A stretch of DNA of 64,000 nt from an uncultured Chthonomonadaceae bacterium (GTDB taxonomy: Bacteria; Armatimonadota; Chthonomonadetes; Chthonomonadales; Chthonomonadaceae): NCBI GenBank assembly GCA_963817895.1, contig CAWFQB010000005.1, forward strand, positions 832,001 through 896,000, in the 5' to 3' direction. Of this stretch, positions 1 through 8,657 are shown one piece after another. The notes under the pieces are model-generated. The model was not told where the DNA came from, searched no databases, and saw nothing but the letters and a program-made list of their open reading frames with translations. Each line of letters opens with the position of its first letter. Within the stretch, counting starts at the first letter, position 1. The position numbers were made by a program, and so were the translations under genes.

Positions 1-538
1 GGGCTACGAGTTCGTCAACAAGCTGACGGGCGGCTCGATCCCGAAGGAATTCGTTCCCGCCATTGAAAAGGGCGTGAAGGAAGCCTTGGAAGCGGGCGTG
101 ATTGCCGGCTACCCGGTTGTGGACGTGAGAGTGTCCGTAACCGACGGCTCATACCACGAAGTCGACTCCAGCGAAATCGCCTTCAAAGTGGCCGCCAACC
201 AGACGATGAAGGAAGCCCTGCGCAAAGGACGCTCGTACATCAAAGAGCCGATTATGGCAATTGAAGTGACCACGCCCGAAGCCAACATGGGCGACGTGAT
301 CGGCGACATCAACCGTCGGCGCGGTCAGGTGGAAGGCATGGAGCCGGAGCCGGGCGGCAAGCAGGTTGTGCGCGCGCAGTGTCCCCTGTCCGAAATGTTC
401 GGGTACGTGAACGATCTGCGCGGGTTTTCGCAGGGCCGCGCGTCCTTCACCATGACGCCCTCGCACTACGCGGAAGTGCCGCGCAACGTGGCGGAAGAGA
501 TCGCCGCCAAGAGCGGCAAGCAGCCCGTCAAGGCATAG
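1..538 (+). CDS. fusA: Elongation factor G, C-terminal part (partial at window edge)
   Basis: Frame open from base 2: [16 protein letters not shown]...[22 protein letters not shown]...[23 protein letters not shown]...[16 protein letters not shown] (EF-G domains IV-V). Confidence 0.97.
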
Positions 539-550
539 CGCAGTAACTCA

Positions 551-600
551 GGGAGTAAGGGGCAGTTGTCTGTCCCTTACTCCCGTTTCTTTGCTTCTTA
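551..600 (+). terminator. Intrinsic terminator after fusA
   Basis: GGGAGTAAGGGGCAG-ttgt-CTGTCCCTTACTCCC stem followed by a T-rich tract. Confidence 0.7.
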
Positions 601-681
601 TATTTTTGCCTGATGAAGTTTGTTTCCGGCGTTGATACCGCGCGTTCACACGACGCGCTTTGTGCCTGTCTGGATGCGTGA

Positions 682-1182
682 ATGACTCTCCTGACGCGAC
701 TGGCTGTTAAAGAACCCTTTGAGACATGGCCGGATATGGAACTTGCCGCAACAGAACGCTATTGGGACGGCCTGGCATTAGCGGCACATGACCTGTCACG
801 CAATACAGGGGCGGTCTACTGTTTCGGCTACGTTGTCGAGATGTTGTTAAAGGCAGCGTACTTTCGCGTTACCGGTGTGGCAGATACGCAGAACTTAAAT
901 GCAGGGCCATTAGCTGCTATGCGAACGCAGGCCGCATGGCGCGGACGTAATTTACACGATTTGCAAGGGTTAGCCAGTCTGTTGATTGACGTGAGGCAGG
1001 CGCTTGGCATTGCGTTTGATCCCGCTGTGGCCGCGCAAATGCTGTGGTATGTACTCACAGTGGATTCTCATTGGAGAGAAACCCTGCGCTACAAGCACAC
1101 TCCCGCGCTGGAAGAAGAGCTGCATGAGGTGTATTACGGTGTAGAGTGGATTTGGGAGCATCGTAATTTGTTGTGGAGTTAA
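682..1182 (+). CDS. HEPN-like domain protein (putative toxin/RNase)
   Basis: GAVYCFGYVVEMLLKA ... HDL ... W.ETLRY pattern typical of HEPN domains. Confidence 0.7.
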   Translation: MTLLTRLAVKEPFETWPDMELAATERYWDGLALAAHDLSRNTGAVYCFGYVVEMLLKAAYFRVTGVADTQNLNAGPLAAMRTQAAWRGRNLHDLQGLASLLIDVRQALGIAFDPAVAAQMLWYVLTVDSHWRETLRYKHTPALEEELHEVYYGVEWIWEHRNLLWS

Positions 1183-1185
1183 ACC

Positions 1186-1500
1186 ATGCCGGTAATTAGA
1201 ATTCATCCAACAGTTCCGCAAGCCCCGCCGGAGTTAGTAGCCGCGCTTGCCGACGAGTTGCGGCGTAATGAGGTGGATGGGCCGGAAGACGCGCCGCATA
1301 TTGTTGAGGAAGAAGCCCTGCGCGGCAACTACTTTGCGGTCAAAGTGATATGGGATGCCTGGAAAGGTCTTGACCCGGAACTCCGTAGTCGCGCCATCAT
1401 GGATGCTTACAATCAAGTGAGGCCGGAAGATGTGTCTCACATCAGCCTTGCAATCGGTTTTACCCATGCGGACGCGCAACGCTTCAATATCGCTTCCTGA
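1186..1500 (+). CDS. Small partner of the HEPN gene (putative antitoxin; BolA/MNT-like beta-alpha pattern)
   Basis: Starts 3 nt after the HEPN stop with a GGAG RBS; F.VKVIWDAWKGL...RS.AIMDAY pattern. Confidence 0.6.
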   Translation: MPVIRIHPTVPQAPPELVAALADELRRNEVDGPEDAPHIVEEEALRGNYFAVKVIWDAWKGLDPELRSRAIMDAYNQVRPEDVSHISLAIGFTHADAQRFNIAS

Positions 1501-1515
1501 AGCAGAGGTGGTCCA

Positions 1516-2112
1516 ATGTCTAAGATCAAACCAGACTGCGACCAATCCGCGCCCTTTCTGATGTGGGTTGAAGAGATTACAAGGCTACGCCGCGATATTT
1601 GCCTTGTGATTGGGCTTGTTGAGCGCGGGAAATTAGAACTTAATGCGCGTATCGAAGTTGTAGGCGGACAATCCGTTCAACAGGCGCGTATCGCAGACAT
1701 TGAACAGTTCTACAAAAAACAAACTGTTATGCGTTGTGGAGAGCAGGCAGGTGTTCTTCTTAGGCCGACGCCCAAAAAAATAACTCAAGATTGTGTCATT
1801 GCTGCGCCGGACAGTATTCAGGCATGTACAAAATTTCGCGGCAATATACAAGTCGTGAACGAAGCGGAAGGCAGCGGCAAACCTGTCTTCCTTACAGGCG
1901 AAGAAGTTCAGTTCTTCTTTCGTAATATTTATGTGCCGGGAACTTATACGTTCCTTGATGGTTTCGATTCGACAGTATCCGAGAACAGAGTGATTCTGAT
2001 TTGTACGCTTACTCGCCCTGTTGCCATGGAAGAAGGACAAGAGTTTACCGTCTATAGCAACGGGAGAGTTGTTGGAATAGGTAAGGTTGTCGAACTGATT
2101 ACGAAAAGTTGA
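1516..2112 (+). CDS. Diverged EF-Tu domain II+III-only protein (no GTPase domain)
   Basis: PFLMWVE, GLVERG, IEVVG, IEQFYK, GEQAGVLLR, TKF, QFFFR, PVAMEEG..F.V...GRVVGIGKV are collinear with EF-Tu domains II-III; GAGG RBS. Confidence 0.85.
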   Translation: MSKIKPDCDQSAPFLMWVEEITRLRRDICLVIGLVERGKLELNARIEVVGGQSVQQARIADIEQFYKKQTVMRCGEQAGVLLRPTPKKITQDCVIAAPDSIQACTKFRGNIQVVNEAEGSGKPVFLTGEEVQFFFRNIYVPGTYTFLDGFDSTVSENRVILICTLTRPVAMEEGQEFTVYSNGRVVGIGKVVELITKS

Positions 2113-2129
2113 GCTTCTGGAGGAACAAA

Positions 2130-2375
2130 ATGCCGGAAGAAGCTAATATGGCGGCGGATTGGCTCAAACAAGCTGCCGCCGAACGTGGAATGGCAGACAG
2201 GTTCAGCGCCACGTATATGCGCGCTGACAGAGAATGGTTATATTTCGCGGTGCGGCTGAGTAACGCAGGTGATGCTTCGGAAAGAGCAAATTTATTGCTT
2301 GATCTGGAAGACGCCTGGGAGTCTCACGAACCGAACCCGCGCTGGCATTTGATGTTGATGCCTTCCGGCGCGTAG
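2130..2375 (+). CDS. Small hypothetical protein, paralog of 3053..3346
   Basis: GGAGGA RBS; C-terminal LEDAW...EP.P...L.L.P.G motif shared with 3053..3346. Confidence 0.7.
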   Translation: MPEEANMAADWLKQAAAERGMADRFSATYMRADREWLYFAVRLSNAGDASERANLLLDLEDAWESHEPNPRWHLMLMPSGA

Positions 2376-2454
2376 GAAGCGCGCGATTGACCGATAAACC
2401 AACAGTCGGCTTTATTCCTGCAAATGAAGCCGAACTGATTGCGAAAAATTGAGG

Positions 2455-2504
2455 TATAATAGCAAGCCGGTCTGCGGACAACGGATGCCCGACCGGTTTT
2501 TGCT
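2455..2504 (+). promoter_or_regulatory. Putative S10 promoter -10 box and leader hairpin
   Basis: TATAAT at 2455-2460 then an AGCAAGCCGGTC...GACCGGTTTTTGCT hairpin upstream of rpsJ; no clear -35. Confidence 0.45.
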
Positions 2505-2514
2505 TTGACTATGG

Positions 2515-2613
2515 TTCAGGTATTCAGGTATTCAGGTATTCAGGTATTCAGGTTAGGCGCAATTCCTTCCTGTACACCTGAATACCTGAATACCTGAATA
2601 CCTGAATACCTGA
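2515..2613. repeat. Inverted pair of tandem octamer arrays (TATTCAGG)n / (CCTGAATA)n
   Basis: About 4.5 units per arm, 22-nt spacer, ends just before the rpsJ RBS. Confidence 0.95.
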
Positions 2614-2630
2614 CACAGAAAGAGGTACTA

Positions 2631-2951
2631 ATGCCACCCCTCGGACGACAGGACAAGGTTCGCATTCGCTTGCGGGCTTTTGACCACCGCATCCTGGACC
2701 AGTCGGCAGAAAAGATCGTGGATACCGCCAAGCGCACGGGCGCGCGCGTGGCCGGACCCGTTCTTCTTCCGACCGAGAAGCTGATCATCTGCGTGAACCG
2801 CAGCACGACCATTGACAAAGAGAGCATGGAGCATTTCGAGCAACGGACGCATAAGCGCCTGATTGATATTCTCGAACCCGGCCCCAAAACCATTGACGCG
2901 CTGATGCGCCTCGATCTGCCGAGCGGCGTTGACATCGAAATAAAACTGTAG
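2631..2951 (+). CDS. rpsJ: 30S ribosomal protein uS10
   Basis: [35 protein letters not shown]...HKRLIDI. Confidence 0.98.
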
Positions 2952-3052
2952 GCGCAACGTTTATGGAACTCTGGCAGCAATGGTGGATGCTGGCGCAGTA
3001 ATCGGTTCATCACGGCTCAGATAGAAGCGATTTTGCCGAAAGAAAACTAGCA

Positions 3053-3346
3053 ATGGCTGATTTGTTGGAGAAACCAGTCCGGCTGGATCTCGATGCGCTT
3101 CACGCCTGGCTAGAGCAAGAGGCAAAAGCGCAAAACATTCAGGCATATTTCGCAATCCGAAGCGCGAAGGTGCTTGAGGATGGCTACCTTAAATTGCCGA
3201 CCTACATCGGCAATCCAGGAACTGCCTTTGAACAGGTGGTCTTGATGGGAAACCTTGAAGACGCCTGGAACGATCAGGAACCGAAGCCTGAGTTTAAGCT
3301 GCACCTCTACCCGATGGGCAAGCCCCGCGAGTGGAGCAGCGAGTAG
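3053..3346 (+). CDS. Small hypothetical protein inserted between rpsJ and rplC, paralog of 2130..2375
   Basis: LEDAWNDQEPKPEFKLHLYPMG motif shared with the upstream paralog. Confidence 0.7.
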   Translation: MADLLEKPVRLDLDALHAWLEQEAKAQNIQAYFAIRSAKVLEDGYLKLPTYIGNPGTAFEQVVLMGNLEDAWNDQEPKPEFKLHLYPMGKPREWSSE

Positions 3347-3367
3347 AACGAGACACGAGGAGAAACT

Positions 3368-3997
3368 ATGGCGGTCGACACAATTCTGGGCAGAAAAATT
3401 GGCATGACCCAGGTCTTCAATGACCGGGGCGAAATCGTGCCGGTTTCCGTGATAGAAGCAGGCCCCTGCATTGTCACGCAGCTCAAAAGTGTTGAAAAAG
3501 ATGGCTATGTAGCTGTCCAGGTCGGGTTTGGCGAGATACGCCCCCGGCTTGTCAACAAACCGGAAACGGGGCACTTCACCAAAGCAGGCGTCACGCCCAC
3601 GCGACACCTGCGCGAAATCCGCACCGAGGACACGAGCGCGTACAAACTGGGAGATGCGATTACATGCGACATCTTTGCCGTTGATCAGCGCGTCAAGGTG
3701 ACGGGTATATCCAAAGGCAAAGGTTTTGCCGGCGTTGTCAAGCGCTTCCACTTTCATGGCGGCGATATGACGCACGGCTCGATGATCCACCGCAAGCCGC
3801 AGTCCAGCGGCGCGACCGATGCGGCCCGCACGTTCAAGGGGACCCGAAAACCCGGGCAGATGGGCAACAAGCAGGTGTCGGTGCGCGGATTGCGCATTGT
3901 GCGCGTGGATGCGGCACAGAATTTGCTGCTAATAGAGGGAGCCATTCCCGGCTCCGATGGCGGCCTTGTGACCATTCAGCGCCTGGCGCGACGTTAG
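3368..3997 (+). CDS. rplC: 50S ribosomal protein uL3
   Basis: ILGRKIGMTQVF...DGYVAVQVGF...SKGKGFAGVVKR. Confidence 0.98.
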   Translation: MAVDTILGRKIGMTQVFNDRGEIVPVSVIEAGPCIVTQLKSVEKDGYVAVQVGFGEIRPRLVNKPETGHFTKAGVTPTRHLREIRTEDTSAYKLGDAITCDIFAVDQRVKVTGISKGKGFAGVVKRFHFHGGDMTHGSMIHRKPQSSGATDAARTFKGTRKPGQMGNKQVSVRGLRIVRVDAAQNLLLIEGAIPGSDGGLVTIQRLARR

Positions 3998-4011
3998 GGA
4001 GACAACACATC

Positions 4012-7266: not shown

Positions 7267-7391
7267 GAAGATACGAGATACGAGATACGAGATACGAGTG
7301 GGGAACTATAATTCCGCGTTTTCTCGGTTCAGGGAATACAGTGTAGGATGGTCTTTTCACTTGTATCTTGTATCTCGTATCTCGTATCTTC
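7267..7391. repeat. Inverted pair of tandem heptamer arrays (GATACGA)n / (TCGTATC)n
   Basis: Between the rplV stop and the rpsC RBS; 4 units per arm. Confidence 0.93.
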
Positions 7392-7409
7392 TGCCTCTCA
7401 GGAGAGACT

Positions 7410-8657
7410 ATGGGCCAGAAAGTACACCCAATCGGATTTCGAATCGGCGTGATTCGCGACACGGAGAGCAAGTGGTATCTCCCGAAGCGCGGTTTCGCCG
7501 ATGCCGTATATGAAGATTACAAGATTCGCCGTTATATCAAGAAGCACAAAATTCTTGCCAACGCCGCTATTTCCCGCGTGGAAATCGAGCGGGGCGGCAA
7601 CCGCGTAAAAGCCACGCTGCACACCGCCAAACCCGGCATCATCATCGGGCGGCAGGGGCAGGGCGTGGACAACCTGAAAGCCGAACTGGAAAAGTTGACA
7701 CAGAAACAGGTGCATGTTTCAGTCAATGAAATCCGGCAGCCCGATCAGGACGCGCAGCTCGTGGCCGAAAGCATCGCGCAGCAGATCGAAAAGCGCATCG
7801 CGTACAAACGCGCCATGCGTCAGGCGGTTCTTCGCGCCATGAAACTGGGCGTCAAGGGTATCCGCGTGATGTGTTCCGGGCGGCTCGCGGGCGCGGAAAT
7901 GGCGCGCAAAGAGCAGGATCGCCAAGGCAAAATTCCGCTTCACACCCTCCGCGCCGACATTGACTACGGCTTTGCCGAAGCGGCAACCACGTATGGCAAC
8001 ATTGGCATCAAAGTGTGGATTTACAAGGGCGATGTTCTGCCGGGACAGGCGCGGCAAACGGAGTCCGAGCCGGCTCGCCCGCAGCGCGGCGATGGCCGCC
8101 CGGATCGTTCCGGCGAACGGTCGGACAGCGGACGTGGCGGTGATCGCGGCGGCAGGGGCGGCAGAAGCGGTGGCGGCGGTGATCGCGGCGGACGCGGTGG
8201 CGGCGGCGGTGGACGCGGCGGCCAGGGTAGCGGCGGCTTTAGCGGCGGCGGTGGTCAAGGCGGTGGCGGCTTCAGTGGCGGTGGCGGTCGCGGCGGTCAA
8301 GGCGGCGGTGGCGGCTACCAGGGCGGCGGTCAAGGCGGTCAGGCTGGCGGTCAGGCCGGACCTGCCCGCACCGGCGGACGCGGCGACGGCTTTGGCGGCG
8401 CGGCGCAGGGCGGCCCGCGCGCGCAGGGTACGGGCGGCAGTCGTCCAAGTGGCGGGGGCGGCGGCACAAGCCGACCGGGCGCAGGTGGTGGGCCGAGCGG
8501 CGTACCGGGCGGCGGCGGGCGACCTGCCGGCGAGCCGGGGCCGCGCGCCGATGTGAGTGGAACCGGGCGCGAGGCGCCCCAGGGTCATCAGGATCAACGC
8601 GGGGGCGCAGGCCCCGGCGGCGGTCATCCCAACGACAATCCTACACCGAACGAGTAG
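7410..8657 (+). CDS. rpsC: 30S ribosomal protein uS3 with about 200-aa Gly/Arg-rich tail
   Basis: [13 protein letters not shown]...KPGIIIGR...[12 protein letters not shown]...[12 protein letters not shown]; start placed at ATG 7410 after AGGAG. Confidence 0.97.

Follow-up and report, generated by a model that had tools for sequence, protein, structure and literature searches.

Between fusA and rpsJ, the 64,000-nt stretch of DNA analysed here (the window) carries four small open reading frames, which raises the question of whether they form one system or share only a location. A sequence-only reading had proposed a four-gene, translation-linked defence or toxin-antitoxin system, with independent insertions at a hotspot as its fallback. 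It is the fallback that fits best. The locus is probably an insertion hotspot where three unrelated elements have come together: a type II toxin-antitoxin-like pair with predicted HEPN and BolA-like folds (ORF1-ORF2), a GTPase-less EF-Tu that likely descends from tuf (ORF3), and an orphaned partner from a second HEPN family, HEPN-B (ORF4). The features are as follows, with all coordinates given as positions within the window, 5' to 3'.

551-594, + strand: terminator-like hairpin and T-run closing fusA, 15 pairs at 551-584, also in G002
682-1182, + strand: ORF1, 166 aa, HEPN-T-fold protein and predicted RNase toxin of module A
1186-1500, + strand: ORF2, 104 aa, BolA/KH-II-like partner of module A, likely antitoxin
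1516-2112, + strand: ORF3, 198 aa, EF-Tu domains 2 and 3 without the G domain, in the ancestral tuf slot, fast-evolving and mosaic in domain 2
2130-2375, + strand: ORF4, 81 aa from an ATG behind a GGAGG site, orphaned HEPN-B partner
2456-2461, + strand: TATAAT, candidate -10 element for the S10 operon, from the sequence and the alignment with G002
2631-2951, + strand: rpsJ (Pfam S10)
2963-3001, + strand: HEPN-B gene stub of 12 codons behind rpsJ, like the start of the intact G002 HEPN-B
3053-3346, + strand: ORF5, paralogue of ORF4 and second orphaned HEPN-B partner, behind rpsJ

The four ORFs are co-oriented on the + strand with intergenic gaps of 3, 15 and 17 nt, as had been noted. None of them is a chance frame, because all four families have intact relatives elsewhere. 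The stretch is bounded downstream by rpsJ and upstream by the end of fusA at 538 with its hairpin at 551-584, which agrees with one of the boundaries proposed earlier. The other, an S10 promoter region, gave no signal in a consensus scan, which found no sigma-70 promoter in positions 1-4000; it gains support from the TATAAT at 2456-2461, which that scan did not score and which is conserved, along with a hairpin behind it, in the same-genus genome G002. Just 5' of rpsJ, tandem 8-nt repeats and their reverse complements opposite make up a long hairpin (2516-2612). G002 has a similarly arranged hairpin before rpsJ with a different repeat unit, and Rfam returned only sub-threshold miRNA-type hairpin matches for the region (2518-2612). 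One contig in sequencing data covers the ORF3/ORF4 junction (2055-2271) without differences and may stem from the source sample. Two DNA sequencing runs contained small shares of the stretch, and no RNA sequencing runs containing it were listed.

ORF1 had been called HEPN-like, and despite the absence of matches in Pfam, NCBIfam, PADLOC and PHROGs its AlphaFold (AF2) model (pLDDT 93) shows the predicted four-helix HEPN fold. Ranks 1-4 in VIA were all HEPN proteins, namely AF0298 (2hsb; Z 14.1, rmsd 3.0, 123 aligned), TT1696 (Z 13.9), ST0689 (Z 13.0) and the sacsin HEPN (Z 12.9), with rmsd 2.5-3.0 over the four; these scores carry the caveat that helical bundles generally score high. The top five Foldseek hits were also all HEPN, at weak E-values of 0.13-0.4. 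ORF1 gave no match at the PF05168 gathering score, and among 35 family members one matched at E 0.087. Searches of PDB sequences with the ORF1, ORF2 and ORF4 profiles returned noise only. Clustered at 50% identity, the ORF1 family counts 1120 clusters with a cut-off of E<=0.001 and 704 with E<=1e-10, and no relatives were found in viral contigs.

An alignment of 140 rows identified Y46, E53, K57, H92, W131, R136 and Y137 as conserved, with E53, K57 and R136 at 99%, Y137 at 99-100% and H92 at 100%. E53 and K57 form the Ex3[KR] motif of helix 2 that is described for HEPN-T in the accessible part of PMC3710099. The canonical HEPN Rx4-6H motif is missing from ORF1, and no conserved His follows R136 in the 140 rows. 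H92 and R136 correspond to the alternative His in the helix 2-3 insert and the motif Arg of the AF0298 type, for which the same part of PMC3710099 proposes that a His between helices 2 and 3 replaces the motif His. Because this active-site layout matches that of AF0298-type HEPN-T, RNase activity is predicted for ORF1, which by analogy would be an RNase toxin. HEPN-T proteins belong to the HEPN-MNT type II toxin-antitoxin systems (PF05168; AF0298/2hsb, TT1696/1ufb, ST0689/1wol; PMC3710099, accessible part), and ORF1 resembles them in its predicted fold (Z 13-14), its Ex3K motif, its alternative His between helices 2 and 3, and an Arg before the C-terminal Tyr. It differs in being longer (166 aa) and in lying below Pfam detection.

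The missing Rx4-6H motif and the missing Pfam HEPN hit both speak against a toxin-antitoxin reading. The former would suit an alternative in which ORF1 is a non-catalytic HEPN, the pair an RNA-binding regulator of the surrounding operon, and ORF3 a slowly dying tuf remnant; non-catalytic HEPN regulators are described in the part of PMC3710099 that is accessible. We consider this alternative very unlikely, given the near-invariance of E53, K57, H92 and R136 (99-100% in 140 rows) and the fact that the host operons are unrelated to each other.

ORF2 had been flagged as a 104-aa partner without the GS/DxD signature, in a pairing that looked non-standard, and both points hold. GS and DxD are nucleotidyltransferase motifs, and no such columns occur in the 47-row ORF2 alignment; ORF2 as an active MNT was rejected. 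The AF2 model (pLDDT 75) has an alpha-beta-beta-alpha-alpha-beta-alpha order, a predicted fold like that of BolA/YrbA (PF01722), and BolA leads both fold searches, with BolA1 in Foldseek (E 2.7e-3) and the BolA-family YrbA in VIA (Z 6.3, rmsd 3.2, 65 aligned). This Z lies below the tool's distinctive level, which counts against the preferred reading; minimal nucleotidyltransferases score lower still (1ylq Z 4.1, 2rff Z 3.7). The conserved His of BolA is an Fe-S ligand. ORF2 differs from BolA/YrbA in having no conserved His column (47 rows), in having no Pfam hit (PF01722 is matched by 0 of 47 family members) and in being nearly always tied to a HEPN gene. Neither ORF2 nor ORF4 matched PADLOC, PHROGs or NCBIfam. 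The ORF2 profile matches another HEPN partner of the same genome (hhalign 90%, E 1.4e-6), and that partner hits PF01722 at E 1.8e-4. Descent from BolA and descent from a dead MNT are both possible. In loci L042-L107, many ORF2 relatives are extended at the C-terminus by about 80 residues, which are missing from the window's ORF2.

ORF2 is the constant partner of ORF1. The metagenome set consisted of the best 80 of 129 confirmed ORF1-family matches, of which four loci with less than 150 nt downstream were left out. A profile search found an ORF2 relative directly 3' of ORF1 in 73 of the 76 counted, with a partner profile built partly from the loci on which it was tested; the window's ORF2 alone as query gave a match in 67 of the best 80. 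The three misses comprise a locus with reversed order (L101), one with a garbled HEPN (L100) and one in which the HEPN is intact and its partner truncated (L083). The partner lies 5' of the HEPN in L096 and L101. Across a phylum sample, the ORF1 family was present in 16 of 201 genomes, at 22 loci, and the partner at 21 of these, the remaining locus being cut by a contig end. Genome G150 holds two ORF1-ORF2 modules in tandem (L170 and L184).

ORF1-ORF2 resembles HEPN-MNT systems in pairing the HEPN gene with one other gene, for a small alpha/beta protein. It differs in gene order, since the HEPN comes first (partner 3' in the 73 of 76 loci above, from the best 80 of 129 matches), whereas the MNT gene is almost always 5' of HEPN according to the accessible part of PMC3710099. 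It also differs in its partner, which lacks GS/DxD and whose model scores higher against BolA (Z 6.3) than against MNT (Z 4.1).

The pattern of gene loss in this family is no more than suggestive. G002 has lost ORF1 except for its last 13 bases and kept ORF2 under purifying selection (dN/dS 0.08 against the window's copy). Among the genome loci, stops occur in 4 of 22 ORF1-family genes and in none of 21 partners, an asymmetry that is not significant (Fisher p 0.11) and to that extent weakens the case. HEPN loss with the partner kept is the pattern expected from toxin loss with antitoxin retention, to which L083 is a counter-case. We consider ORF2, with its predicted BolA-like shape, the likely antitoxin of ORF1. 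In such a system, ORF1 would dimerise and use R136, H92 and E53/K57 to cut RNA, following the proposal for AF0298-type HEPN-T; ORF2 would silence it by direct binding, not AMPylation, and loss of ORF2 would lead to translation arrest.

The surroundings of the module are mostly metabolic or housekeeping. A flank scan took 90 of 129 candidate ORFs (37 loci), and 42 of the 90 had Pfam hits, including gap-pgk, glycine cleavage, lipoamide dehydrogenase-like, ispG and MoxR-DUF58 genes. The gap-pgk pair flanks ORF1-ORF2 in four of five loci, which comprise relatives and a paralogue in the window's own genome. Defence or mobile flanks amounted to one Uma2 and one transposase among the 42 Pfam hits. 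The module is probably a selfish or stress-response element, transcribed by read-through from housekeeping operons.

These flanks bear on another possibility, anti-phage abortive infection, in which ORF2 would sense a phage protein or nucleotide and release the RNase, like the core proposed for HINPO. HINPO combines a HEPN with an inactive nucleotidyltransferase-ParA, together with ORC/CDC6 (bioRxiv 10.64898/2026.10.19.760177, accessible part). The gene order is the same here, with an uncharacterised HEPN first and a catalytically inactive alpha/beta domain behind it; the spread of the family is patchy (the 16 of 201 phylum genomes), and ORF2 also aligns to MNTs (Z 3.7-4.1). As far as HINPO is described there, ORF1-ORF2 differs in that the partner stands alone or has a short C-terminal extension and no ParA or ORC/CDC6 ORF lies between fusA and rpsJ. 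This absence, the metabolic flanks and the lack of a PADLOC match lead us to regard an anti-phage role as unlikely. HINPO is nevertheless the nearest system, set apart by that description, and ORF1 and ORF2 could be stand-alone relatives of PA-HEPN1/iNTase, which would lower the novelty of the pair.

ORF3 and ORF4 are not constant companions of the toxin-antitoxin-like pair. Profiles for ORF3, ORF4 and HEPN-B found nothing in the 80 ORF1 metagenome loci (best 80 of 129), 45 of them with 1.3 kb or more of downstream sequence, and among the 22 ORF1-family genome loci ORF3 and ORF4 occur in the window only (0 of 21 others). The proposed neighbourhood search for HEPN genes co-occurring with EF-Tu II-III-only genes thus came back empty in both sets, and, with ORF4 tied to a different HEPN family, the idea of a four-gene translation-linked system is not supported. 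On the other side of the balance, contigs of equal length suggest that very close relatives probably have the four genes together at this locus too. Shared descent explains such recurrence, while a local functional link may exist.

ORF3 is the only one of the four ORFs with library hits (PF03144 and PF03143, both above cut-off). In agreement with the sequence-only reading, it carries EF-Tu domains 2 and 3 alone, aligning to EF-Tu 202-395 only, at 33-35% identity to the tuf of its own genome. With EF-Tu (TIGR00485) it shares these domains and the tuf position in the str operon; it differs in its missing G domain and its changed tRNA-contact equivalents. In a chosen, not random, set of 16 relatives fetched, tuf lies directly before rpsJ in 12, the slot has no recognisable content in G001, G015 and G023, and G002 holds a broken ORF3. 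The only full tuf found in the window's own genome is on another contig, with tRNA genes and nusG as neighbours. In a mixture-model tree the ORF3 clade falls within the tufs of the host lineage (SH-aLRT 99, stem of 2.56 changes per site), and the lineage-typical Q64 and F134 are common to all five ORF3-clade proteins. Subsets of 50 and 36 rows from the 63-row tree went into AU tests, which left other origins unrejected: with LG+G4 the alternatives had the better scores (p 0.61 and 0.62), and with the mixture model p was 0.075 and 0.16. From these comparisons, ORF3 likely descends from a host tuf copy that was once at this position. Paired tuf genes normally differ by <1.4% (PMC6822514, accessible part), and ORF3 is likely a duplicate tuf that escaped the usual uniformity and took a new job.

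Four intact ORF3 relatives, at 81, 74, 60 and 39% identity, make five intact frames with the window's own, and a recent pseudogene was rejected as an account of ORF3 on these grounds. In neutral simulations, the probability of no stop was 0.18, 0.10, 0.03 and 0.004 at these identities; because the frame has been kept against a neutral chance of 0.4-18% per pair, ORF3 is probably under selection. An L3 that is 98-100% identical to the window's lies on contigs equal in size to those of the 81, 74 and 60% relatives, which suggests that these three ORF3 relatives occupy this locus in very closely related genomes. A search of 42 family and 301 phylum genomes turned up no other intact ORF3, and ORF3 appears confined to close relatives. 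Other taxa also have stand-alone EF-Tu domain 2+3 proteins, a domain set seen in 29 of 30 Atlas hits, and none of them scored as an orthologue. Phage records gave EF-Tu matches at 30-33% only, among the matches listed (15 of 16), and no paper on stand-alone EF-Tu domain 2-3 proteins was among those listed in literature searches. A slowly dying remnant, as the regulator alternative has it, would agree with the broken ORF3 in the G002 assembly and with a GC3 of 0.43 in ORF3 versus 0.77 in tuf. The five intact frames argue against it, as do the G002 breaks over ORF3-ORF4, which are mostly insertions (14 versus 3 deletions), suggest a noisy consensus and may be assembly noise.

We take the EF-Tu residues F218, G222, R223, T228, R230, N273, T382, E215, E259 and Q329 to be tRNA-contact positions. 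The window's ORF3 keeps the equivalents of E215, E259 and Q329, and those of F218, G222, R223, T228, R230, N273, R318, T338, R377, E378 and T382 are changed. In domain 3, E378, paired with R318, is the acidic T-stem contact in tRNA binding (PMC12221289, accessible part); its equivalent is S or L, and that of R318 is changed, in all five ORF3-clade proteins. Delivery of tRNA by ORF3 is unlikely because tRNA-contact residues have been lost, and the earlier suggestion that the EF-Tu-like domain brings tRNA to the nuclease founders on the E378, R318 and T382 equivalents; ORF3 was rejected as such a carrier. Selection likely maintains it as a binding protein without catalytic activity.

What it binds could be imagined in terms of a locally evolved guard system, in which ORF3 would act as an EF-Tu decoy catching EF-Tu-binding toxins, antibiotics or phage proteins and would be functionally coupled to ORF1-ORF2. 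The frame kept over large divergence is consistent with this, and so is the pattern of that divergence: domain 3 is about 78% identical among four members, domain 2 ranges over 31-83% in two allele types (values of 83, 67 and 37% among them), and L3 on the equally sized contigs is nearly unchanged. Moreover, domain 2 of the G002 ORF3 resembles that of P0034, not the window's, and in one other assembly ORF1 and ORF3 relatives are found on equally sized contigs. Fast change equally fits relaxed constraint, however, and the empty counts at other ORF1 loci (0 of the best 80 of 129; 0 of 21), the position of ORF3 at the usual tuf position and the complete loss of slot content in three relatives make a guard system quite improbable. 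We give similarly little credence to a wider conjecture, that a spare tuf became an EF-Tu decoy which evolves fast, can exchange its domain-2 alleles, binds EF-Tu attackers and, at this locus, triggers or shields the HEPN RNase of a large, undescribed toxin-antitoxin class with BolA-fold antitoxins.

ORF4 is an orphaned partner from a second HEPN family, not from the ORF1-ORF2 module. Of 42 genomes of the family, 11 besides the window's own gave a match to ORF4, and in 10 of the 11 a PF05168-type HEPN gene (HEPN-B) lies directly upstream of the ORF4 relative, between rpsJ and rplC. The exception, G019, has a marginal ORF4 match (E 0.005, three stops) and no HEPN-B or rpsJ context. G002 retains a degraded HEPN-B between ORF3 and ORF4, where the gene is missing from the window. 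ORF5 is 32% identical to ORF4 (E 8e-12), with a dN/dS of 0.18 against G002, and the ORF2 and ORF4 families have no detectable relation (hhalign 0.8%). Here too partners have stayed where the HEPN gene has gone, a pattern again suggestive of toxin loss with antitoxin retention: the window has lost HEPN-B twice over, and the copies in G023 and G024 are broken. In relatives, the gap between rpsJ and rplC holds HEPN-B pairs, intact or in tandem; the window has the stub and the orphan ORF5 there, inside the S10 operon.

Returning to the toxin-antitoxin-like pair, ORF1-ORF2 is likely a new variant of HEPN toxin-antitoxin modules. Our literature search, which covered few subscription journals, turned up no description of a HEPN/BolA-fold pair standing by itself, and BolA is unmentioned in the accessible main text of PMC3710099, whose supplements may list the ORF1 family. 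If ORF2 is an antitoxin, at least 700 clusters (50% identity) use a BolA-shaped, non-enzymatic partner instead of a nucleotidyltransferase, which would extend HEPN toxin-antitoxin biology and link the BolA and MNT folds. Small BolA-like genes in housekeeping operons, such as that in the nuoE/nuoF-like pair of this genome, may then be antitoxins, not iron-sulfur factors.

This last gene, next to a HEPN gene, sits between nuoE-like and nuoF-like genes on contig C3 (L159:512-1224; neighbours read by eye). The same genome holds at least six further pairs of a HEPN and a small partner (L160-L165 and L005), two with weakly BolA-like partners and one with a truncated HEPN, and at gap-pgk an ORF1 paralogue with a premature stop adjoins an intact partner. 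A candidate from the genome-contig profile search with ORF1 alone (L007) was a false positive with no HEPN ORF. Within the window, long tails of low complexity extend the C-termini of the ribosomal proteins L4 (4012-4767), L22 (6390-7262) and S3 (7368-8657), whose names were assigned by eye from sequence and gene order. Upstream of rpsL (L023:5396-6535), a frame that by eye resembles a REP-associated transposase runs into another small-protein domain.
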